This document shows positions 11,465-43,947 of a DNA stretch of 64,000 nucleotides, one piece after another. Below the pieces are notes generated by a model, which worked only from the letters and a program-made list of their open reading frames with translations, was not told the origin of the DNA and did not search any database. The stretch is taken from NCBI GenBank assembly GCA_022776215.1, contig JALFIR010000017.1:5836-69835 (forward strand), given 5' to 3'. The position numbers and the translations under genes are program-made. Numbering within the stretch: position 1 is the stretch's first letter; each line of letters begins with the position of its first letter. Source of the stretch: Solobacterium sp. (GTDB lineage Bacteria; Bacillota_I; Bacilli_A; Erysipelotrichales; Erysipelotrichaceae).

Positions 11465-12811
11465 CTAACAACTAGTAGCTCCTTGTAGGTTAGGCGTAAT
11501 CATATATGATTTACCGTGTTTCTTGTATAGATAAGTAGATACAAACATTGTAGTTAGTTCTGCAAGTGGCATTGTTAACCAAACACCAGTAACACCCATG
11601 AATATAGGCAGTACTAGGATATAAATAACTACAAGTATTAATGATCTAAGTGTTGATACAATGGCTGATAATAGGCCATTACCTAGGGCTGTGAAGTAGC
11701 CTGAGATAAAGACATTGAAGCCAATGAATAAGAATATTGGGTTAAATATCTTTAGGCCATACCATGTTATGTCAAATACATGTCCGTTTTCTACGAAGAT
11801 ATGAATGATGTCTTTACCAAAGATGTATGAGATGGCAGTAACTAGTATTGCGGTAATAATAATTGTTATAAAGCTATATCTAGTTGTTTCATTGATTTTG
11901 TCATAGTCTTTAGAACCAATGTTATAGCTAACGATTGGTGCTGCACCTACTGCGATTCCCATGTAGAAGGAAATAAAGAAGTAGTAGATGTTCATAATGA
12001 TGGTTACAGCAGCTACACCATCTTCTTGGAAATATTTAAAAATTATAATATTGAATAAGAATGTAGTGATGCCAGTTGATAGTTCCGTTAACATTTCACT
12101 ACTACCGTTGGTGCATGATTTAAGTAAAACATTCCAATCTATCTTGGGTTTGGTGAATTTAATGTTACTAAATTTAAGGAAATATACTAATCCTATAAGC
12201 ATGCTTATTGAGATTGAAGATAGGGTGCCAAATGCTGCACCTATGGTTCCTAAATTGAATATGGCAACTAATATATAATCGAATACCACATTTAAGACAA
12301 GACCAATAGATGACATAATCATACCAATGTCTGATCTGCCATCGGTTCTTACAAGATATTCAAAGAATAGTTTAAAGGACATAGGTATGCTTCCTAAGAA
12401 TATTACTAGGGCATATGGTAGTACGTGTACTAATAGTTTTTCACTACTTCCAAGGAAGATACAAATGGGTTTTAAAAATACGATACCAAAGATTGTGAAT
12501 AGTGTAGATAACAACAATAGTACGATGTTGATGAAGGTGAAGATTTCGTTGGCTTCTTGTTGTTTCTTTTGACCAAGTTTTTCACCTATAATAGCTCCAG
12601 ATCCTGTTGCTAACATGACGGATGTTCCAAAGATTATACAGGTTATTGGGATTACGATGTTGATGCCAGCTAGAGCATCTGAGCTAACGTATTTGGATAC
12701 AAAGAAACCATCGATGGCAGTATAGAATGATAAGAATATCATTGTTAGTACCGAGGGTACTAGGTATTTTAGAAATTGAGGGTAGCTCATTTTATTTTCA
12801 AAACAGTTCAT
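11465..12811 (-). CDS. MATE family efflux transporter
   Basis: About 12 TM segments with a typical MATE N-terminus (FLKYLVPSVLTMIF...). The start was trimmed to MNCFENK, preceded by GGAGAAAAT. Confidence 0.9.
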   Translation of the reverse strand: MNCFENKMSYPQFLKYLVPSVLTMIFLSFYTAIDGFFVSKYVSSDALAGINIVIPITCIIFGTSVMLATGSGAIIGEKLGQKKQQEANEIFTFINIVLLLLSTLFTIFGIVFLKPICIFLGSSEKLLVHVLPYALVIFLGSIPMSFKLFFEYLVRTDGRSDIGMIMSSIGLVLNVVFDYILVAIFNLGTIGAAFGTLSSISISMLIGLVYFLKFSNIKFTKPKIDWNVLLKSCTNGSSEMLTELSTGITTFLFNIIIFKYFQEDGVAAVTIIMNIYYFFISFYMGIAVGAAPIVSYNIGSKDYDKINETTRYSFITIIITAILVTAISYIFGKDIIHIFVENGHVFDITWYGLKIFNPIFLFIGFNVFISGYFTALGNGLLSAIVSTLRSLILVVIYILVLPIFMGVTGVWLTMPLAELTTMFVSTYLYKKHGKSYMITPNLQGATSC

Positions 12812-13004
12812 ATTTTCTCCTGATTTAACAATATCTAATACTAAACTATATAGTAGGTATATAGTCAAGAAGTTTTTTAAAAAAATGTGTTGTCAACACC
12901 TAAAATGATGAAACTATATTTAATGAAAATCCTATTCATAATTTTGTTTACAATTTTATAAGTTAGCCTATCCTTTTATTGTTTCGGTCATTATAATTGT
13001 AATG

Positions 13005-13024
13005 GTTGAACATTCAACTATAAT
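13005..13024 (+). promoter_or_regulatory. 14-bp palindrome GTTGAACATTCAAC abutting a TATAAT box upstream of nrdD
   Basis: Palindrome at 13005-13018, TATAAT at 13019-13024, SD AGGAG at 13034-13038, ATG at 13048. Nearly the same palindrome recurs at 21449-21462. Confidence 0.55.
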
Positions 13025-13047
13025 CTAAACCATAGGAGAAACTTATT

Positions 13048-15327
13048 ATGAATCAAATAAAAAAGCGTAAGGGCAATTTGGTAGCTTATGACCCTGAGAA
13101 GATAAGAGTAGCTATCACTAGTGCTAATCATGATATTAAGAAGAAGGCTTCTGATGCAGAAATTGAAGTAATCTTTGAGGCGGCTAAAAATGAGGTTGAG
13201 GAGCTTTTAACTAATCATAATGTTTCTGTAGATGAGATTAATGATATCGTTGAAAGAGCGATGATGAAATATGATTGTTACGAATTAGCTAAACAATTTA
13301 TTGAGTATCGTTACCGTCATAAATTAATTAGAGAATCAAATACAACTGATGAATCTATTTTTGAATTGATTAATGGTAAGTCAGAGTATTGGAATGAAGA
13401 GAATTCAAATAAGAATGCAAGACTTGTTACTACACAACGTGACTATATTGCGGGTATTGTGAATACAGATATTGCTAGAAGATTCTTACTACCAAAGGAT
13501 GTGGTTAAGGCTCATGATGAGGGTATCATCCATGAACATGATATGGATTATCTAGCGGATTTCGCAAGGCATAATTGTGAGCTTATCAATCTTGAGGATA
13601 TGCTTCAAAATGGTACTGTTTTAAATGGTGTAATGATTGAAAAGCCACATCGTTTTATTACAGCAAGTACTATTGCAACTCAAATCATGACTGCGGTTAG
13701 CGCTTCTAGTTATGGTGGTTTAACAGTTACCTTGACTCATTTAGCACCTTTTGTAAGATCTAGTTTCTATAGACACTATAAATTTTTTGTGAAGGAAGTT
13801 CTTGGTCAAGAATTGAACGCGTTGATTAACGAAGATACAAGAATGGATAGTGATGTTTATGCATCTATTCCTGCTGCCTTAGATTATGCGACTAAGCAAA
13901 TTAAGAAGGAAGTTGAAGATGGTGTTCAAACTTTCAATTATCAAATTAATTCAATGTCTTCAACCAATGGTCAATCACCTTTCTGTTCAGTATTTATGTA
14001 TCTAAATGAAACTGATGAATATAAAGATGAATTAGCTATGATTATCGAGGAGTTCTTGAAACAAAGAATTCAAGGCTTAAAGAATGAAAAGGGTATTTAT
14101 GTTACCCAAGCTTTCCCTAAGCTTCTTTATGTCTTGGAAGAAGATAATATTACCGAAGGTTCTAGATATTGGTATTTAACAGAATTAAGTGCTAAGTGTT
14201 CTGCTAAGCGTTTAGTTCCAGACTATGTTTCTGAGAAGATGATGAAGAGTCTTAAGATTAATAAGTTTGGTGTTGGAGATTGTTATGGTCCTATGGGCTG
14301 TAGATCTTTCTTAACTCCAGATAGAATTGAGGGTAATCCTGCTAATGCCTTAAATTATGATCCAAATAAGGGTAAGTATTGGGGTAGATTCAATATGGGT
14401 GTATGTACAGTTAATCTATTTGATGCGGCTTTAAGTTCTAATCGTAATGAGGGTGAGTTCTGGAAATTATTAGATGATAGATGTGAATTATGTCATACAG
14501 GTTTGAAGGTTAGAATTAATAGATTAGCTAGTGCTACTAGTGATGTGGCTCCAATATTGTGGCAACATGGTGCTTTGGCAAGACTACAACCTCATGAGAA
14601 GTTGGAAAAGTTAGTATATGGTGGTTATTCTACTGCTTCACTTGGTTATGCAGCTTTATATGAATGTGTTAAGTATATGACAGGCTTGAATCTTACTGAT
14701 AAAGAGGGCGAGGCTTTTGGTATGCGTGTCATGAATTTCTTGAATGATAAGTGTGCTAAGTGGAAAAAGGAAGAGAATATTGATTATTCTGTTTATGGTA
14801 CGCCTCTTGAGACTACTACTTATAAGTTTGCGAAGATGGCTAAGAAGAAGTTTGGCGATGATGTGTTTGTAAAACTTGATGGTCATGATAGAGATTATGT
14901 GACTAATTCAAGTCATACTCCTGTTTTCCAAAATATTGATGCGTTTGATAAGTTGGATATTGATGGTAAGTTCCAAGAATTATCTCCAGGTGGTAATGTA
15001 ATTTATATTGAGACACCTAATCTTCAAAATAATATTGAGGCAATTTTAGAAGTAATCAAATATATGTATGATCATACTATGTATGGTGAATTAAATACTA
15101 AGTCTGATTATTGCATGAATTGTGGTTATGATGGCGAGATTATGGTTGTTGAGGATGAAAAGACTCATAAGCTAGTTTGGGAATGTCCAAATTGTAAGAA
15201 CCGTGACCAAAATAAGATGCAGGTAACAAGACGTACTTGTGGTTATCTAGGTTCTCATTATTGGAATCAGGGTAGAACTGATGAGATAAGATCTAGAGTA
15301 TTGCATCTAGATAATGTATGCGAATAA
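13048..15327 (+). CDS. nrdD: Anaerobic ribonucleoside-triphosphate reductase (class III, E. coli/T4-like type)
   Basis: N-terminal ATP-cone, PMGCRSFL motif, C-terminal Zn ribbon (CMNCGY...CPNCKN) and glycyl-radical motif RRTCGYLGS. Confidence 0.95.
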   Translation: MNQIKKRKGNLVAYDPEKIRVAITSANHDIKKKASDAEIEVIFEAAKNEVEELLTNHNVSVDEINDIVERAMMKYDCYELAKQFIEYRYRHKLIRESNTTDESIFELINGKSEYWNEENSNKNARLVTTQRDYIAGIVNTDIARRFLLPKDVVKAHDEGIIHEHDMDYLADFARHNCELINLEDMLQNGTVLNGVMIEKPHRFITASTIATQIMTAVSASSYGGLTVTLTHLAPFVRSSFYRHYKFFVKEVLGQELNALINEDTRMDSDVYASIPAALDYATKQIKKEVEDGVQTFNYQINSMSSTNGQSPFCSVFMYLNETDEYKDELAMIIEEFLKQRIQGLKNEKGIYVTQAFPKLLYVLEEDNITEGSRYWYLTELSAKCSAKRLVPDYVSEKMMKSLKINKFGVGDCYGPMGCRSFLTPDRIEGNPANALNYDPNKGKYWGRFNMGVCTVNLFDAALSSNRNEGEFWKLLDDRCELCHTGLKVRINRLASATSDVAPILWQHGALARLQPHEKLEKLVYGGYSTASLGYAALYECVKYMTGLNLTDKEGEAFGMRVMNFLNDKCAKWKKEENIDYSVYGTPLETTTYKFAKMAKKKFGDDVFVKLDGHDRDYVTNSSHTPVFQNIDAFDKLDIDGKFQELSPGGNVIYIETPNLQNNIEAILEVIKYMYDHTMYGELNTKSDYCMNCGYDGEIMVVEDEKTHKLVWECPNCKNRDQNKMQVTRRTCGYLGSHYWNQGRTDEIRSRVLHLDNVCE

Positions 15328-15337
15328 TTGAATGAAG

Positions 15338-15362
15338 TCGCTGGCTATGCTGGCGATTTTTT
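15338..15362 (+). terminator. Intrinsic terminator after nrdD
   Basis: 8-bp stem 15338-15345 / 15349-15356 (two G-U pairs) with a 3-nt loop, followed by TTTTTT. Confidence 0.55.
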
Positions 15363-15575
15363 CTTATTGTTTTTATACCCCATAAATTCTATATGGGGTA
15401 TAAAGGGTATAACAACTAAAGACTGTAACGAATAGTGAAAACTGATTTGTATAAATATCAGGTAAATTAATAGCACTTCTTTTAATTATTAAGTGTGCAC
15501 CCAATAAAACTATATACTTTTTGGTGCAATAAGATAGATAAGAAGTATATTTTATTAAAAGGAAGAATATTGGTC

Positions 15576-15581
15576 TAAAAT
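15576..15581 (+). promoter_or_regulatory. -10 box TAAAAT placed 6 nt before the nrdG ATG (leaderless geometry)
   Basis: TAAAAT-GGATAT-ATG with no SD upstream. Confidence 0.45.
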
Positions 15582-15587
15582 GGATAT

Positions 15588-16079
15588 ATGAGATATGCAC
15601 AAATAAGAAAAAAAGATATTGCGAATGGACCTGGCATCCGTGTGAGTATATTTGTACAAGGATGTCATTTTCATTGTAAGAATTGTTTTAATAGTGATAC
15701 TTGGGATTTTAATGGTGGCCAAGAATTTAAACAAGAAGTTTTAGATAGATTATTAGAATATGGCGAAGATGTCCATGTCTGTGGTTTATCCGTTTTGGGT
15801 GGTGAACCATTGAATGAGAGAAATGTTGATGGTGTTGTAGAAATTTGTAAGGCTTTTAGAGAAAAGTTTCCAGATAAGTCTATATGGCTTTGGAGTGGCT
15901 ATACTTATGAAAACCTTAATGATAATCAAAGAAGAGTATTAGAATATTTAGATGTCTTGGTTGATGGCCAATTTGAAGATGAACTAAAGGATTTTAGACT
16001 TAAGTATCGTGGTTCTAGTAATCAAAGAGTGATTGATGTAAAGAAAAGTAGTATTAATAATATAGTTTCAATGATATAA
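15588..16079 (+). CDS. nrdG: Anaerobic ribonucleotide reductase activating protein (radical SAM)
   Basis: DIANGPGIRVSIFVQGCHFHCKNCFN (CxxxCxxC) in a 163-aa protein. Confidence 0.9.
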   Translation: MRYAQIRKKDIANGPGIRVSIFVQGCHFHCKNCFNSDTWDFNGGQEFKQEVLDRLLEYGEDVHVCGLSVLGGEPLNERNVDGVVEICKAFREKFPDKSIWLWSGYTYENLNDNQRRVLEYLDVLVDGQFEDELKDFRLKYRGSSNQRVIDVKKSSINNIVSMI

Positions 16080-16081
16080 CT

Positions 16082-16196
16082 CTTCAATAATGGAACATTT
16101 AGAGTATAATTATCCTTCAAAAGTGGAACATTTTGCGTTTAGAAGGTCTTCAATAATGGAATATTCTTTGTAAAAATAGTTTTCAATAATGGAACT
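16082..16196 (+). repeat. Four direct repeats CTTCAATAATGGAACA phased at exactly 33 bp
   Basis: Copies at 16082-16097, 16115-16130 (CTTCAAAAGTGGAACA), 16148-16163 (..GGAATA) and 16181-16196 (TTTCAATAATGGAACT). A TATAAT lies at 16211-16216. Confidence 0.9.
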
Positions 16197-16240
16197 TGTG
16201 TATTTTAATGTATAATAAACATAAGGAGAAATGGGCTAAA

Positions 16241-17584
16241 ATGAAGATTTTTAAGAGAAAAGCTTATCAATCATTATTGGAGTGGAAAAATAAATACTCA
16301 AATAATTATGCTTGTTTACTAGAAGGGGCTAGAAGAGTGGGCAAGTCTACACTTGCGGAAGAGTTCGCAAAGAATGAATTTAGGTCTTATATTAGAGTGG
16401 ATTTTTCGGATATTACTAATGAAATGTTGGAGATATTTGATGATATTGCGAATTTAAATTATTTTTTCTTGCGTCTACAGGCAATGACTAATGTTACTTT
16501 GTATGAAAAAGAGTCGGTCATTATCTTTGATGAGATTCAGCTATGTCCTAAGGTTAGACAGGCAGTCAAACACTTAGTTAAAGACGGACGTTATTTTTAT
16601 ATTGAGACAGGTTCTTTGTTGTCGATTAAACAAAATGTTCAAAGTATCGTCATCCCTTCTGAGGAACATAAGATTTCTATTCATCCATTGGACTATGAGG
16701 AATTCCTGTGGGCTACTGGAGAGAATAGTGAATTATTAAAAGAAGTCGCAAAGAAAAAGATTCCTTTGGGTGATGGGGTCAATAGAAGATTGATGAAAAG
16801 TTTCAGACTATATATAGCTGTTGGTGGCATGCCTCAAGCAGTCAATGAATATATTGATACTAATAATCTTGAAAGAGTTGATAAGGTTAAGAGCAAGATA
16901 TTGTCTTTATATAATGATGATTTGTTCAAAATAGATGTTTCTGGTAAGACGAGTGCCATGTTTGATGCAATTCCAAGTCAATTAGCTCTTCAAAAGAAAT
17001 ATTTTTCCATTTCTATGGCTACTAAAAAGAAGAAGACTTCTAAGGATGAGGAAAGATTCTTTAACTTGCTTAATTCGAAGACAGTTATTCCTGTGTTTAA
17101 TGTCACACAACCTTGTTTTGAATTAGCTCAGGATAAACAATTGGATAAGTTTAAACTCTATTTCTCTGATGTGGGTTTGTTTGTCACAAGATTGTTTAAC
17201 AATGGTAAGGGTGTAGAAAATGATATCTATAACAAGTTGTTGAGTGATAGGATTGATGCAAACTTGGGTTATTTGTATGAGAATGCGATTGCGCAGATAT
17301 TAACCGCAAATAATTTAGATTTCTATTATTATACTTGGAAGGATGATGATGATCCACATCTAAAGGAAATAGATTTCTTGTTGGCTTCTCATAAAAAACT
17401 TATTCCAATTGAGGTTAAGTCAGCTTATAGGAATAATCATAAGTCGTTGGATGTTTTTGTGAATAAACATTCTAAGGTTGTTGGTAGACGCATTCTTGTT
17501 TCACAAAAGGATTTTGGTAATGAAGAAATGTTGGAATTAATTCCGTTTTATGCTTTTCCTTTTGTTGCGTCTAATGAATTTTAA
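16241..17584 (+). CDS. AAA-type ATPase with C-terminal DUF4143 / PD-(D/E)xK-like domain
   Basis: Walker A GARRVGKST, Walker B IIFDEIQ, and C-terminal EIDFLL...IPIEVKS. The start was trimmed to MKIFKRKAYQ, after AAGGAG. Confidence 0.8.
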   Translation: MKIFKRKAYQSLLEWKNKYSNNYACLLEGARRVGKSTLAEEFAKNEFRSYIRVDFSDITNEMLEIFDDIANLNYFFLRLQAMTNVTLYEKESVIIFDEIQLCPKVRQAVKHLVKDGRYFYIETGSLLSIKQNVQSIVIPSEEHKISIHPLDYEEFLWATGENSELLKEVAKKKIPLGDGVNRRLMKSFRLYIAVGGMPQAVNEYIDTNNLERVDKVKSKILSLYNDDLFKIDVSGKTSAMFDAIPSQLALQKKYFSISMATKKKKTSKDEERFFNLLNSKTVIPVFNVTQPCFELAQDKQLDKFKLYFSDVGLFVTRLFNNGKGVENDIYNKLLSDRIDANLGYLYENAIAQILTANNLDFYYYTWKDDDDPHLKEIDFLLASHKKLIPIEVKSAYRNNHKSLDVFVNKHSKVVGRRILVSQKDFGNEEMLELIPFYAFPFVASNEF

Positions 17585-21387: not shown

Positions 21388-21393
21388 GTATTT

Positions 21394-21421
21394 ATTATAA
21401 CCTTGAAACAATATTTCAAGG
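21394..21421 (-). promoter_or_regulatory. acyP promoter: TATAAT 6 nt before the ATG, plus palindrome CCTTGAAA-N5-TTTCAAGG
   Basis: The minus strand reads TATAAT (21399-21394)-AAATAC-ATG. The palindrome spans 21401-21421. Confidence 0.5.
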
Positions 21422-21448
21422 ATTTTTAAATTTGTGTGTATTAAATTA

Positions 21449-21475
21449 GTTGAATATTCAACCATTTGTTATAAT
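21449..21475 (+). promoter_or_regulatory. Palindrome GTTGAATATTCAAC plus extended -10 TGtTATAAT upstream of the marR-nrdG fusion gene
   Basis: Palindrome at 21449-21462, TG at 21467-21468, TATAAT at 21470-21475, ATG at 21485 (9 nt downstream), no SD. Confidence 0.55.
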
Positions 21476-21484
21476 GAATACGCT

Positions 21485-22627
21485 ATGGAAAGACTAATGA
21501 ATGTGGATCCAATGATTTTGAATCGTTGTAACCAAAAATATTATGACAAGGTATTATCTAAATACGATATTTCTTATACTCAAATGTTTATTTTGATGGC
21601 AATCTATGAACATAAGGGGCTTTCGATGAATGAATTGGCTGTTATTGGTGCTTATGACAAAGGGACTATTACTAAGGCTATTCAGAAGTTAGAACAGTTG
21701 GGTTATGTGGAGATGACTTTGAGTAGTGAGGATAAGCGTTTGAAGTTGTTGAATACAACGCCAAAGTGTGATCATATTATGCCTGAACTGTATATGATTA
21801 GACAGGGTTGGCAGGATTATTTGTTTAAGGATATTAGTAGGGAAGATTATTTAACTTATGTTAGTGTTGTTGAAAGACTTAATAATAAGGCTAAGGAATA
21901 TCCTCATTATGAGAATGATTTAAATATTCATATCTATGGTCTTCAAAAACTTACCTTATTAGATTATCCAGGTAAGATGGCAGCTACTTTGTTTACTGGT
22001 GGTTGTAACTTTAGATGCCCATTTTGTCATAATCGTTCACTTGTTTTCTTGAATGAACAAGAGGGTGAAATTGATCAAAAGTTGATCTTTGAGTATTTAG
22101 AGAAAAGAAAGAATGTGCTTGATGGTGTTTGTATAAGTGGTGGTGAACCTTTACTACAAGAGGGTATCAAAGACTTATGTAGACAAATTAAGGACTTGGG
22201 TTTGATGGTTAAGTTAGATACAAATGGCTATTGTTTCGACTTATTGAAAGAATTGGTTGAAGAGGGTTTAGTAGATTATGTAGCTATGGATATTAAGAAT
22301 ACCAAGGATAAATATAGCTTCACTTGCGGTTTAAATGATATGGACTTAAGTGGTATAGAGAAAAGTGTTGAGTATCTAAAGTCTAATGTGGTTGATTATG
22401 AATTTAGGACTACAATTGTCAAAGAATTCCATGAGGATTTAGATCTTGAATCATTAGGTAAATGGTTAAAGGGTGCTAAAAGATATTATCTACAAAATTT
22501 TGAAAGTAGAGAAAGTTGTATCCAAAGTGGTTTGAATAGTTTGGATGAAAGTAGGCTGAAAGAATACCAAGAGGTATTGAGTAAATATATTGATAATGTA
22601 TATATAAGAGGATTACAGGAGGACTAG
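21485..22627 (+). CDS. MarR-family wHTH domain fused to NrdG-type radical SAM activase
   Basis: The N-terminal ~140 aa are MarR-like (YTQMFILMAIYEHKGLSMNELA...TKAIQKLEQLGYVEM...DKRLKLL). The C-terminal part is YPGKMAATLFTGGCNFRCPFCHN plus GVCISGGEP. Confidence 0.85.
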   Translation: MERLMNVDPMILNRCNQKYYDKVLSKYDISYTQMFILMAIYEHKGLSMNELAVIGAYDKGTITKAIQKLEQLGYVEMTLSSEDKRLKLLNTTPKCDHIMPELYMIRQGWQDYLFKDISREDYLTYVSVVERLNNKAKEYPHYENDLNIHIYGLQKLTLLDYPGKMAATLFTGGCNFRCPFCHNRSLVFLNEQEGEIDQKLIFEYLEKRKNVLDGVCISGGEPLLQEGIKDLCRQIKDLGLMVKLDTNGYCFDLLKELVEEGLVDYVAMDIKNTKDKYSFTCGLNDMDLSGIEKSVEYLKSNVVDYEFRTTIVKEFHEDLDLESLGKWLKGAKRYYLQNFESRESCIQSGLNSLDESRLKEYQEVLSKYIDNVYIRGLQED

Positions 22628-22628
22628 T

Positions 22629-24992
22629 ATGTATAAGGTTATTAAAAGAGATGGCAAGGAAGTTGATTTTAATGTAAATAAGATTTCTAATGCGATTGGT
22701 AAGGCTTTTGCGGCAGTTGGTAGAGACTTTCATCCAAGTGTGGTTGAACTGTTGGCACTTAGAACTTGTGCTGATTTTGAGACTAAAGTAAAAGATGGCA
22801 AGGTATATGTAGAAGATATTCAAGATAGTGTTGAGAAGGTATTGTCTGAGAGCAATTATGCTGATGTTGCTAAGGCATATATTCTTTATCGTAAACAAAG
22901 AGAAAAGGCCCGTAATTTATCAGAGACTATGCTTGATTATAAGAAGTTAGTTAATTCTTATGTTGATTCAATTGACTGGCGTGTTAAAGAGAATTCGACA
23001 GTTACTTATTCGGTTGGTGGTTTGATTCTTTCAAATTCTGGTGCAATTACAGCCAACTATTGGTTGAGTGAAATTTATCCAAATGAAATAGCTAATGCCC
23101 ATCGTAATTGTGATATTCATATTCATGATTTGAGCATGCTTACAGGATATTGCGCTGGTTGGTCACTTAGACAATTGATTCAAGAAGGATTAGGTGGTAT
23201 TAAGGGTAAGATTACATCTGCTCCAGCAAAGCACTTGTCAACTTTGTGTAATCAAATGGTAAATTTCTTGGGTATTATGCAAAATGAGTGGGCTGGTGCA
23301 CAGGCTTTCTCTTCTTTTGATACTTATTTGGCGCCTTTTGTAAGAGAAGATAATTTATCTTATAAGCAAGTTAAACAATGCATCCAATCTTTTGTCTATG
23401 GTGTTAATACACCTTCTCGTTGGGGTACGCAAGCACCTTTCTCTAATATTACATTAGACTGGACAGTTCCTGAGGATATGGCTGAGCAATTCTGTTTAGT
23501 TGGTGGCAAAGAACTTTCTTACACTTATAAAGAGTGTCAAAAAGAGATGGATATGATTAATAAGGCCTTTATTGAAGTAATGTTGGAGGGTGATGCCAAT
23601 GGTAGAGGTTTCCAATATCCAATTCCAACTTATTCAATTACTAAGGAATTCGATTTCTCAGAAACAGAAAATAATAAATTGTTGTTTGGGATGACTGCTA
23701 AGTATGGTACTCCTTATTTCTCTAACTATGTAAATTCTGATATGAAGCCAAGTGATATTAGATCAATGTGTTGTCGTTTAAGATTGGACTTAAGAGAATT
23801 AAGAAAGAAATCAGGAGGTTATTTCGGTTCTGGTGAATCAACAGGTTCTGTTGGTGTGGTTACTGTTAATATGCCTCGTATTGCCTATTTAGCTAAAGAC
23901 AGAGAAGACTTCTATAATCGTTTGGATAAGATTATGGATATCTCAGCTAAGTCTTTAAAGATTAAAAGAGAAGTTATTACTAAGCTATTAGAGAATGGCT
24001 TATATCCATATACATTAAGATATTTGGGCACATTCAAGAATCATTTCTCTACTATTGGTTTAGTTGGTATGAATGAGGCTTGTTTAAATGCTAATTGGAT
24101 AAAAGCTGATTTGACTGAAGAGATTGCTCAAGATTTTACTGAAGAAGTATTGAATCATATGCGTGAGCGTTTGGTTATTTATCAAGAGATGTATGGCGAT
24201 TTATACAACTTGGAAGCTACTCCTGCGGAGTCTACGGCTTATCGTTTGGCAAAGCACGATAAGAAGGAATATAAGGATATTATTACAGCAAATGATGATT
24301 CTAAGGTTCCGTATTATACAAACTCTTCACATTTACCAGTAAGTTTTACTGATGATGTATTTAGAGCTTTAGATATTGAGGATAGATTCCAAAATTTATA
24401 TACTTCAGGTACTGTTTTCCATACTTTCTTAGGTGAGAAGCTTCCTGATTGGAGGGCTGCTGCAAGTCTTGTAAAGAAGATTGCGACTAATTATAAGTTA
24501 CCTTACTATACTATCTCTCCAACTTATTCTATTTGTGAGGATCATGGTTATATTACAGGTGAGGTTTATACTTGTCCAATTTGTGGTAAGAAGACTGAAG
24601 TTTGGTCTCGTATTACTGGTTATTATCGTCCTATTTCTAACTGGAATGATGGTAAGGCTCAAGAGTTTAAGGATCGTGTAGAGTATCTTCCTAGTGATTC
24701 TACTGTTCTAAAGGCTAAAGAAGTAAAAGAGGAGATTGTTAAGGAAGAGCCAAAACACGAGTATAAGCCAAGTGAGTTAACAATTTTTGTGCAGGATCAT
24801 TGTCCTAAGTGCAAGGGTGCTGAGCAGAGATTGAGACTTAAGGGTATTAATTATAATGTGGTTAATTGTAGTGTAGATACAAAGTTAGCTAGAGAATTAG
24901 GGGTAGTAGAAACACCTACAATTATTGATACTGATGGCAAGTGGTATGCTGGTGCTAATGCGGCAGTTGACTATTTAAAAGATCATGAGTGA
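22629..24992 (+). CDS. nrdD: Anaerobic ribonucleoside-triphosphate reductase with fused C-terminal glutaredoxin/NrdH-like domain
   Basis: ATP-cone, SMCCRLRLD, Zn ribbon CEDHG...CPICGK and glycyl-radical RITGYYRP. An extra ~70 aa follow: TIFVQDHCPKCKGAEQRL...VETPTII (24777-24989). Confidence 0.9.
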   Translation: MYKVIKRDGKEVDFNVNKISNAIGKAFAAVGRDFHPSVVELLALRTCADFETKVKDGKVYVEDIQDSVEKVLSESNYADVAKAYILYRKQREKARNLSETMLDYKKLVNSYVDSIDWRVKENSTVTYSVGGLILSNSGAITANYWLSEIYPNEIANAHRNCDIHIHDLSMLTGYCAGWSLRQLIQEGLGGIKGKITSAPAKHLSTLCNQMVNFLGIMQNEWAGAQAFSSFDTYLAPFVREDNLSYKQVKQCIQSFVYGVNTPSRWGTQAPFSNITLDWTVPEDMAEQFCLVGGKELSYTYKECQKEMDMINKAFIEVMLEGDANGRGFQYPIPTYSITKEFDFSETENNKLLFGMTAKYGTPYFSNYVNSDMKPSDIRSMCCRLRLDLRELRKKSGGYFGSGESTGSVGVVTVNMPRIAYLAKDREDFYNRLDKIMDISAKSLKIKREVITKLLENGLYPYTLRYLGTFKNHFSTIGLVGMNEACLNANWIKADLTEEIAQDFTEEVLNHMRERLVIYQEMYGDLYNLEATPAESTAYRLAKHDKKEYKDIITANDDSKVPYYTNSSHLPVSFTDDVFRALDIEDRFQNLYTSGTVFHTFLGEKLPDWRAAASLVKKIATNYKLPYYTISPTYSICEDHGYITGEVYTCPICGKKTEVWSRITGYYRPISNWNDGKAQEFKDRVEYLPSDSTVLKAKEVKEEIVKEEPKHEYKPSELTIFVQDHCPKCKGAEQRLRLKGINYNVVNCSVDTKLARELGVVETPTIIDTDGKWYAGANAAVDYLKDHE

Positions 24993-25887
24993 TATTTATG
25001 ATTTGGTGATAGTAGGAGGAGGTCCTGCGGGACTTACTTCTGCCATCTATGGTCTAAGAAATGGCCATAGTGTAGCGGTTATTGAAAGAGATGTCTTTGG
25101 TGGTCAAATTACAAGTTCACCAAGTGTATTAAATATTCCAGGTTTTAATAAAATCAGTGGTGATGAGTATGGTGATCTATTGTTAGAACAGGTTAGTAAA
25201 TTGGGTGGTGAACTTGTTTTTGATGAATGTGTTAAAGTGTCACCAGGTGATGTTATTACTGTTAACTTAAAAGATACAGGTGAAATTCTTTGTAAAAGTT
25301 TAATATTGGCAACCGGTACTGTTCATCGTCGTTTAAATGTTGAACATGAGGAAGAATTGATTGGCAAGCATGTACATTTTTGTGCTGTATGTGATGCTGG
25401 TTTATATAAAGATAAGACAGTAGTTTTGGTAGGTGGGGGTAATTCGGCTTTAGTTGAGGCTGATATCTTAGCTAATATCTGTAAGAAAGTGATTATCTTA
25501 CAAGATTTAAGCGAATTTACTGGTGAAGCATCTTTGATTAAGCAATTAGAGAGCCATGATAATATCACTACTTATTTTAATTGTTCAAATATTAAGTATA
25601 TTGTGGAAGATTCTTTCAAGGGTGTTAGTTTTAATGGCAAGGAATTATTATGTGATGGTGTTTTCTTGGCTATTGGCTTAGTTCCTGATAATAAGTATTT
25701 TAAGGATTTGTTAGACTTGGATGATAGAGGATATTTCATCGCTGATGAGAATGGCTATACAAAATATGATAATATTTTTGTGGCAGGCGATTGTCGTCAA
25801 AAGATGTTAAGACAGGTAGTTACTGCCTGTGGCGATGGTGCTAATTGTGCCATTAATGCCAGTAGATATTTAAGAGGTGTGAAATGA
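24985..25887 (+). CDS. Thioredoxin-reductase-like flavoprotein (CAVC redox centre, no HRRxxxR NADPH motif)
   Basis: GGGPAG, HFCAVCDAG, GGGNSALVEA and AGDC motifs. Overlaps nrdD by 8 nt (ATGAGTGA). Confidence 0.85.
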   Translation: MSDIYDLVIVGGGPAGLTSAIYGLRNGHSVAVIERDVFGGQITSSPSVLNIPGFNKISGDEYGDLLLEQVSKLGGELVFDECVKVSPGDVITVNLKDTGEILCKSLILATGTVHRRLNVEHEEELIGKHVHFCAVCDAGLYKDKTVVLVGGGNSALVEADILANICKKVIILQDLSEFTGEASLIKQLESHDNITTYFNCSNIKYIVEDSFKGVSFNGKELLCDGVFLAIGLVPDNKYFKDLLDLDDRGYFIADENGYTKYDNIFVAGDCRQKMLRQVVTACGDGANCAINASRYLRGVK

Positions 25888-43008: not shown

Positions 43009-43947
43009 CTTGTATACTCTTAATACATTCTTATAACAAATCTTTTCTATTTCTTCTTCTGAGTAATCGTGTTCTCTTAAAGCATCTATTAACATATACA
43101 TTTGGGAACAGTCACTCATTTCTTTTCTTTTCTTGATGCCATCAAAGTCACTGCCTAGGCCAATGTTGTCGATGCAACCTAGTTCTTTGATGTGGTCAAT
43201 GTGTTTGATGATGTTTTCAACACTACCATTACTGTCGTTACTGATGAAGTCTTCACAAAAGTTCATGCCCATTACACCATTGTTTTTGTGTAGTTTTAGG
43301 ATCATTTCATCGCTTAGGTTGCGAGCAACATCACAAATGGCTCTTGCGTTAGAGTGTGATGCTACTATTGGTTTTGTTGAAAGTTCAAGTACATCTTCAA
43401 AGCCTTTGTCTCCTAAATGAGATACATCGATGATGATGCCAAGTTCGTTACATTTCTTGATATATTCTTTGCCAAAATCAGTTAGACCATCAATTGTGTT
43501 TAATGTTCTTAACATTTGATAACGATCAGGATTTGGGGTAAAGTTTGGACTTCCGATACTGTTTTTAAAGTTCCAAGTAAGGGCAATCATTCTAACACCT
43601 AATCGATAATATAGTTCTAGGATGTCTAGATCATTGTTGATGACATCTCCTTCTTCAAGTGTTAACATGGCTGACATTAGTTTGTTTTCTTCAATGTCTT
43701 TGTATGAAAATACTTGTTTAATTAAGTCTTTATTAGCTTCTATTTCTTTATAGAACTTATTAATGTTCTTTAATACGTAGGGTACTCTATCTTTTACTTT
43801 GTCATAGTTTGTGAAGATGGCGAAGTTTTGTAGAAGATAGTTACTTTGTTTCATTTTGATTAGGTCAATGTCTAAATCGTTGTTTCTTAGATGAGTATTT
43901 TCATCTAGTGATAAGAGTGTGTCACAGTGCATGTCTACTATATACAT
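42994..43947 (-). CDS. Membrane (M19 family) dipeptidase
   Basis: MYIVDMHCDTL and VSHLGD...ASHSNA motifs. The start was trimmed to the ATG after AAAAGGAGTA. Confidence 0.85.
   Translation of the reverse strand: MYIVDMHCDTLLSLDENTHLRNNDLDIDLIKMKQSNYLLQNFAIFTNYDKVKDRVPYVLKNINKFYKEIEANKDLIKQVFSYKDIEENKLMSAMLTLEEGDVINNDLDILELYYRLGVRMIALTWNFKNSIGSPNFTPNPDRYQMLRTLNTIDGLTDFGKEYIKKCNELGIIIDVSHLGDKGFEDVLELSTKPIVASHSNARAICDVARNLSDEMILKLHKNNGVMGMNFCEDFISNDSNGSVENIIKHIDHIKELGCIDNIGLGSDFDGIKKRKEMSDCSQMYMLIDALREHDYSEEEIEKICYKNVLRVYKEVLK

Follow-up and report, generated by a model that had tools for sequence, protein, structure and literature searches.

Two class III ribonucleotide reductase operons in one Solobacterium contig

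The window analyzed here, a 64 kb stretch of Solobacterium sp. DNA, is AT-rich (about 32% G+C) and carries two operons for class III ribonucleotide reductases (RNRs). The first opens with nrdD-1 (13048-15327, plus strand), which encodes a class III RNR of the T4-like type (Pfam NRDD, Gly_radical and ATP-cone; NCBIfam NF006732, 772 bits) with 9D3X and T4 NrdD (1H78) as its best PDB relatives. It also contains nrdG-1 (15588-16079, plus strand), the gene for a small activase (NCBIfam TIGR02491 NrdG, 195 bits against a cutoff of 126). The second operon opens with the gene for a 380-residue fusion protein, MarR-NrdG2 (21485-22627, plus strand), in which a MarR domain (Pfam MarR/MarR_2) is joined to a radical-SAM activase (Radical_SAM/Fer4_12; TIGR02495). 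This gene is followed by nrdD-2 (22629-24992, plus strand), encoding a class III RNR with a C-terminal glutaredoxin-like tail that contains CPKC (Pfam NRDD, ATP-cone and Glutaredoxin; NF006126, 1121 bits), and by trxB (24985-25887, plus strand), the last gene of the cassette, for a thioredoxin-reductase-like flavoprotein (Pfam Pyr_redox_2; its 255 bits against TIGR01292 fall below the cutoff of 343). By these Pfam and NCBIfam profiles, the gene assignments that a preliminary description of this DNA had given for both nrd operons were right.

The two reductases, with about 22% identity, are very different class III RNRs; the PDB relatives of NrdD-2 include T. maritima NrdD (4COI/4U3E), and its Glutaredoxin match covers residues 718-757 (24780-24899 of the window). 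Some class III RNRs take thioredoxin, not formate, as reductant, as is the case for NrdD of Neisseria bacilliformis (Wei et al., 2014, as cited in passages of PMC4390871 and PMC11226230). The glutaredoxin-like CPKC tail of NrdD-2 and its thioredoxin-reductase-like neighbour suggest that this enzyme, too, may use a thiol reductant rather than formate, as a thiol-dependent class III RNR with a redoxin of its own. The genes marR-nrdG2, nrdD-2 and trxB form one cassette (21388-25887) between the genes for an acylphosphatase and an M18 peptidase, and the same cassette lies at the acylphosphatase/M18 peptidase junction in L082, L083 and L089. Among the 56 fusion loci with enough downstream sequence, nrdD-2 is adjacent after the fusion gene in 53; a thioredoxin-reductase-like gene follows nrdD-2 in 15 of the 56, and 27 have a recognizable glutaredoxin-like tail.

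The region around nrdG-1 is variable (15328-17584). In the window, a gene for an AAA_14/DUF4143 ATPase follows nrdG-1, and other strains have an extra gene for a 600-residue DUF6788/AAA_14 protein between nrdD-1 and nrdG-1 (2244-4046 in L081; 6658-8466 in L169). Close homologues of NrdG-1 (68-76% identity) also occur without nrdD in phage-like or mobile-element contexts (L088, L090, L091, L174 and L176), where their neighbours include genes for HNH, DUF1064 and ParB proteins, a phage scaffold protein and a dUTPase. In another fusion-bearing species (L083-L085, 2957-5586), nrdG-1 comes after the gene for a Na/Pi cotransporter, lies near one for a thioredoxin and has no nrdD-1 beside it; this region holds no copy of the operator described below.

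A palindrome common to both nrd promoters

A 14-bp palindrome on both nrd promoters had been pointed out in the preliminary description, and both copies were recovered: GTTGAACATTCAAC at 13005-13018 in the promoter of nrdD-1 (putative operator 1) and GTTGAATATTCAAC at 21449-21462 in that of marR-nrdG2 (putative operator 2). Neither is assigned to a strand, and both are exact matches to the family motif derived below. They differ, as had been reported, at a single central base, the seventh, which is C or T. Rereading their surroundings also upheld the described layout: GTTGAACATTCAAC abuts a TATAAT at 13019-13024, with the ATG of nrdD-1 at 13048, while a TATAAT at 21470-21475 begins 7 nt past GTTGAATATTCAAC and is preceded by a TG (21467-21468), which makes it an extended -10, with the ATG of marR-nrdG2 at 21485.

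These sites are non-random. The 64 kb window contains two exact matches to GTTGAANNTTCAAC, whereas 100 dinucleotide-preserving shuffles give an expectation of 0.01 and in no case two matches. The earlier impression, gained by eye, that the window has no third full copy thus held in a pattern scan, GTTGAAnnTTCAAC having just the two copies at 13005-13018 and 21449-21462. Even the looser core GTTGA-N4-TCAAC occurs in the same two places only, where 0.07 would be expected. The best additional match in the window, with one mismatch, is intragenic (position 43376); it and the other copies with one or two mismatches (45825, 25893 and 32009) were dismissed as intragenic or weak.

We also compared the palindrome with the binding site of NrdR. 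The NrdR box is 16 bp long, with conserved C4, A6, A8, T9, T11 and G13, and is paired, with a linker of 15-16 bp or 26-27 bp (PMC13584703). An NrdR box was rejected for GTTGAAYATTCAAC, which is without the C-N-A-N-A-T-N-T-N-G core. Only isolated NrdR cores with one mismatch lie near the two nrd promoters (12829, 12914, 12937 and 21409). No box pairs (starts 31-32 or 42-43 nt apart) were found in the nrd upstream regions, with five weak pairs elsewhere in the window, and a scan with the NrdR consensus acaCwAtATaTwGtgt returned nothing at the nrd promoters. The preliminary description had held that the palindrome is not an NrdR box, and the published six positions and pair spacing (PMC13584703), absent from both promoters, lead to the same conclusion.

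Other palindromes lie close to these promoters. One, CCTTGAAACAATATTTCAAGG (21401-21421), was considered as a second operator and rejected, the palindrome not being kept in other Solobacterium-type contigs. Together with a T-run it resembles a terminator hairpin between the divergent acylphosphatase and marR-nrdG2 genes, the pairing of which is lost in those contigs. The divergent intergenic region between matE and nrdD-1 contains GTGTTGTCAACAC (12887-12899), a perfect 13-nt palindrome that is conserved in Solobacterium contigs and absent from the relative L086; it has GTTG...CAAC in common with the operator, with a spacer of 1 nt. Near the start of matE, the palindrome ACTATATAGT (12845-12854) contains TATATAGT (12847-12854), of which a direct repeat follows 11 nt on (12858-12865); these elements have NrdR-like letters with the wrong spacing.

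Position of the palindrome on the core promoter

A promoter is predicted for nrdD-1 at 12997-13024 (plus strand), consisting of the -35 TTGTAA (12997-13002), a 16-nt spacer and the -10 TATAAT (13019-13024), with 10 of 12 matches in a consensus scan. In this predicted promoter, GTTGAACATTCAAC takes up 14 of the 16 bases that separate TTGTAA from TATAAT. An alternative TATAAT upstream of nrdD-1 (12992-12997) would set the palindrome at about +1, a layout that resembles loci L004 and L005; the two TATAAT boxes allow more than one placement of operator 1 relative to the transcription start. On the minus strand, a promoter-like pair with 10 of 12 matches (13017-12990) points to the gene for a MatE efflux protein (11465-12811); it is made up of TTGAAT, from the right half of operator 1, and the reverse complement of ATTATA. 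Since this pair overlaps operator 1, the site might affect matE as well.

At marR-nrdG2, the extended -10 (TGtTATAAT, 21467-21475, plus strand) was read from the sequence, the ATG coming 9 nt after the hexamer. A canonical -35/-10 scan called no promoter here because TTGAAT (21450-21455) is only 14 nt from the -10, a spacing that departs from the family mode. With the hexamer ending 9 nt before the ATG and no Shine-Dalgarno sequence visible before it in the window, the Solobacterium transcript may be leaderless. The fusion genes of rumen relatives, unlike that of Solobacterium, have a 25-30-nt leader with an AGG-rich ribosome-binding site.

The same overlap with the core promoter is seen across the 58 fusion loci in which a site was recognized (see below). 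In 40 of them the site is followed, after 0-15 nt, by a -10-like hexamer. This distance peaks sharply at 9-10 nt, where the left half TTGAAn takes the position of the -35 box, with a spacer of 16-17 nt. At 11 of the 58 loci the -10-like hexamer comes just before the site, which there covers the expected transcription start, and some gut-metagenome loci have two sites, one on each side of the -10. The family thus presents what is expected of a MarR operator, an inverted repeat on the core promoter of the regulator's own gene, with the -35 and spacer overlapped in 40 of the 58 loci. Such positions would suit a repressor that keeps RNA polymerase off the promoter, as MarR proteins usually do.

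The MarR-NrdG2 fusion protein

The fusion protein consists of a MarR domain (about residues 1-140), a linker and a radical-SAM activase that extends from about residue 150 to residue 380. The activase is of the NrdG2 type according to TIGR02495 (208.7 bits against a cutoff of 131.15, residues 150-339), and its CxxxCxxC motif (C174/C178/C181) is invariant in the alignment. In a profile search, residues 3-137 aligned to 3S2W/3BPV (E ~1e-18), with Pfam MarR and MarR_2 above cutoff. The AF2 model (mean pLDDT 77) predicts a complete MarR topology, a low-confidence linker (132-145) and a PFL-activase-like domain. Its MarR part has helices at 9-27, 31-42, 48-55 and 59-71, a wing at 75-91 and helices at 93-113 and 119-137. 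Foldseek matched the MarR part to 3BPX of the MarR family (TMt 0.86, rmsd 1.6 Å) and the activase part to 3CB8, the PFL-AE (TMt 0.68). As modelled, the MarR winged-helix fold is complete, dimerisation helices included.

A protein search with the fusion gave thousands of matches; the best 120 listed are all about 380 residues long with the MarR plus radical-SAM architecture, and belong to Erysipelotrichaceae where the source names them. These homologues are labelled only 'anaerobic ribonucleoside-triphosphate reductase activating protein', a label that hides their regulatory domain. The unfused NrdG2 proteins of Clostridia start at the equivalent of fusion residue ~148, which makes the MarR domain a clade-specific N-terminal addition.

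In 55 unique MarR domains, D58-K59-G60-T61 at the start of the predicted recognition helix and D83 and R85 in the wing are invariant, which parallels the invariant half-sites of the operator. The position of Cys15 recalls that of the OhrR sensing cysteine; the residue is invariant in the 18 closest sequences and present in 40 of the 55 unique domains overall. It is otherwise replaced by Ser, Ala, Val or Asn, and the members with these residues still have the operator. An OhrR-like thiol switch at Cys15 was therefore rejected as a family-wide signal; such a switch could exist in the Solobacterium clade alone.

Distribution of the palindrome among fused and unfused nrdG2 loci

Fusion loci were gathered from a genome collection, from contigs encoding particular homologues and from a metagenome scan for which the MarR domain alone served as seed. 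This last scan yielded 76 loci, all with a full-length fusion wherever the contig allows. The comparison set comprised 61 non-redundant upstream regions of fusion genes, the MarR domains of which are 36-100% identical to that of the window. The motif GTTGAAnnTTCAAC was found with 0-2 mismatches at most 160 nt from the start codon in 58 of the 61 regions (no mismatch in 39, one in 11 and two in 8; the best match in the other 3 has three to five), whereas random 163-nt segments of the same loci typically gave 4-5 mismatches. A recognizable site was absent from three divergent fusion loci among the 61 (L007, L009 and L152). Conservation of the motif upstream of nrd genes in relatives, which the preliminary description had proposed as a check, is thus seen at the fusion genes.

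The count matrix of the 47 unique sites gave the consensus wtAGTTGAAnnTTCAACTaww with the core GTTG..CAA, in which G1, T2, T3, G4, C11, A12 and A13 never vary. No compensatory changes occur across these sites, and invariant letters without such changes are in keeping with a protein-binding site rather than an RNA stem. It is therefore extremely unlikely that the palindrome acts as RNA, in the form of a small 5'-UTR hairpin or attenuator. A stem of 5-8 bp can be folded, with -7.2 kcal/mol when site 1 is taken with its flanks and a weak -3.5 kcal/mol for site 2, and the site would be transcribed at the 11 of 58 loci where it lies downstream of the -10. However, at 40 of the 58 loci, and at both window sites as judged from the predicted promoters, it is located upstream of or within the promoter and would be untranscribed; moreover, no T-tract comes after the palindrome, and its size is unlike that of an Rfam-type structured element. 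No terminator-like site was found in 12780-13080.

The negative controls were the unfused NrdG2 loci that made up most of the matches to activase peptides in a scan of the genome collection. Around 72 unfused nrdG2 genes (about 1 Mb) there were no perfect copies and one match with a single mismatch (L043). Across the 1.13 Mb of fusion loci, perfect copies other than those upstream of the fusion genes were confined to the nrdD-1 promoters of two Solobacterium contigs. The palindrome is hence strictly linked to the fusion gene, and its presence at 58 of 61 fusion loci and absence around unfused nrdG2 lend strong co-occurrence support to the MarR domain of the second activase as the candidate binder, as the preliminary description had suggested.

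These distributions also bear on the possibility that the palindrome is the site of a separate regulator of anaerobic genes, of the Crp/Fnr or Rex type or a MarR paralogue, with an indirect link to the fusion. Both targets are indeed anaerobic enzymes, the TTGA...TCAA half-sites look like Fnr-type boxes in their letters and, with 64 kb of the genome in view, a wider regulon elsewhere is possible. Nevertheless, we consider a separate regulator unlikely. The site tracks the MarR fusion, not nrdG2/nrdD2 as such, being absent from the 72 unfused nrdG2 loci; no perfect copy other than that at Solobacterium nrdD-1 was added by 1.13 Mb around fusion genes; and the nrdD-1 site is degenerate in a relative that lost or never had the cassette. 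In addition, the Fnr consensus is TTGAT-N4-ATCAA (that is, TTGA-N6-TCAA) and the Rex consensus TTGTGAA-N4-TTCACAA, and the spacing TTGA-N4-TCAA, found in both window sites and all family sites, fits neither.

Taken as the operator of the fused MarR domain, the palindrome would mediate autorepression of marR-nrdG2-nrdD2, a reading that rests on sequence comparison and to which we assign a probability of roughly 75%.

The nrdD-1 site and a relative without the cassette

Operator 1 is invariant in six other Solobacterium-type contigs and is documented only in such near-identical contigs. Searches with NrdD-1 and NrdG-1 homologues and contig look-ups recovered no nrdD-1 promoter from a fusion-bearing genus other than Solobacterium. 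The NrdD-1 search returned only proteins with at least 99% identity, among them proteins at 99-100% that carry the name Solobacterium sp. (family Erysipelotrichaceae). The NrdG-1 search and the look-ups gave one informative cassette-less relative, one contig ending 152 nt upstream of nrdG-1, phage-like contexts and a stand-alone nrdG.

The cassette-less relative (L086/L087) has an NrdD-1 that is 91% identical to that of the window and is without marR-nrdG2/nrdD2/trxB at its acylphosphatase/M18 peptidase junction (14036-14401 of L086). It has in common with the window the gene order nrdD-1, nrdG-1, two U32 peptidases, two SpoU methylases, acylphosphatase and M18 peptidase. The two nrdD-1 promoters can be aligned position by position, with GGTCATTATAATTG.AAT and TATAATC conserved. 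At the position of the palindrome, however, the relative reads AGTTAAAGGTATTAACC, which has other bases at the two invariant positions G4 and C11, and its spacer is longer by 2 nt. With the regulator absent, the operator at nrdD-1 is thus not maintained in this single lineage; the site may have been either lost in L086/L087 or gained in Solobacterium.

Could the nrdD-1 copy be fortuitous and non-functional, so that MarR-NrdG2 regulates its own operon only and nrdD-1 is under some other control? The searches recovered no nrdD-1 site from a fusion-bearing species other than Solobacterium, and the nrdD-1 promoter is invariant among the available contigs, which makes conservation there uninformative. 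Still, the copy is a perfect 12/12 match with consensus-type flanks (T at +15, A at +16), of which about 0.01 are expected per 64 kb. It sits exactly in the spacer of a promoter with 10 of 12 matches, that of the other RNR operon, and the relative without the regulator has a degenerate sequence at the corresponding position. A chance copy is therefore quite unlikely in our view. Control of both operons by the fusion protein is the reading we prefer for Solobacterium, although we hold nrdD-1 co-regulation somewhat less certain than autorepression. The idea in the preliminary description that both RNR systems are co-regulated is accordingly plausible for the Solobacterium lineage, which has the nrdD-1 site that is degenerate in L086.

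A proposed model for autorepression and co-regulation

In the model that we favour, the fusion protein would bind as a dimer, with one recognition helix at each GTTGA half-site. Given that the operator overlaps the core promoter, the bound protein would stand in the way of RNA polymerase, and the marR-nrdG2-nrdD2(-trxB) operon would in this way be autorepressed across an Erysipelotrichaceae clade. The Solobacterium lineage has a further putative operator, in the -35/-10 spacer of nrdD-1, which would bring the formate-type class III RNR under the same regulator. DNA binding by the MarR domain, its repressive effect and the co-regulation of nrdD-1 are what we infer from the sites, their positions and the fold.

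What releases the repressor is a matter of speculation. Candidate signals include O2-driven loss of the [4Fe-4S] cluster, binding of SAM, engagement with unactivated NrdD-2 and, in the close clade, oxidation of Cys15. The idea, also raised in the preliminary description, that DNA binding responds to the Fe-S/SAM state of the activase is pure conjecture, though an attractive one because oxygen destroys the glycyl-radical system and the cassette has its own thiol-reductase. MarR-NrdG2 might then be a 'trigger enzyme', in which the [4Fe-4S]/SAM state or the engagement of unactivated NrdD-2 sets the occupancy of the MarR operator and both class III RNRs are adjusted independently of NrdR; we regard this version as possible but doubtful. 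If it were true, the cell would gauge directly whether its anaerobic RNR machinery is intact, for instance following damage by O2, or how much of it is needed. Coupled activities of this kind would give anaerobes of the mouth, gut and rumen a new way to sense oxygen damage or RNR demand.

Comparison with known regulatory systems

The fusion resembles the autorepressors of the MarR family, such as E. coli MarR, S. aureus MepR/MgrA/SarZ, B. subtilis OhrR and M. thermautotrophicus MTH313, in its predicted fold of α1-α2-α3-α4 (the recognition helix), wing and α5-α6. In this family, a short inverted repeat over the -35/-10 of the regulator's own gene is usual. The fusion differs from these proteins in that its MarR domain is covalently joined to a radical-SAM glycyl-radical activase and that its putative targets are class III RNR operons, whereas MarR autorepressors control efflux, peroxide or aromatic-catabolism genes. 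In 1-Cys OhrR-type proteins a cysteine does the sensing; its equivalent, Cys15, is present in only 40 of the 55 fusion domains. A MarR autorepressor with a palindromic operator is familiar, while the fusion to a radical-SAM activase and the dedication to class III RNR appear to be new. Full-text literature searches, the scope of which excludes most subscription journals, found neither a MarR-activase fusion nor its operator, nor any protein-activating radical-SAM enzyme fused to a transcription factor; one apparent match (PMC2795772) has no 'MarR' in its main text.

By analogy, MarR-NrdG2 may also be set beside the enzyme-repressor fusions BirA (biotin ligase plus wHTH), PutA and NadR, each of which combines a catalytic with a DNA-binding domain and acts on genes of the same pathway. 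Such fusions allow regulation by the enzyme's own substrate or cofactor state, and BirA is released from DNA by its protein substrate. The domains are unrelated to those found here, where an Fe-S/SAM enzyme that activates another protein is involved. At the level of the reductase, the CPKC tail of NrdD-2 and its thioredoxin-reductase-like neighbour suggest a thiol reductant, a likeness to the thioredoxin-dependent class III RNRs, as represented by Neisseria bacilliformis NrdD in the cited passages of PMC4390871 and PMC11226230.

RNR-specific transcriptional control is explained almost entirely by NrdR, together with general oxygen regulators. The system described here is like NrdR in having a dedicated, here putative, repressor site on RNR promoters, and in that one regulator could cover several RNR operons. 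It differs in the regulator itself, the Zn-ribbon and ATP-cone of NrdR being of another fold and another sensory logic than the presumed MarR binder. The locus may therefore represent a second solution to RNR control, with a candidate regulator, an operator consensus and a regulon core of marR-nrdG2-nrdD2, to which nrdD-1 would be added in Solobacterium, and about 60 independent sequence instances of the fusion-operator pair are available.
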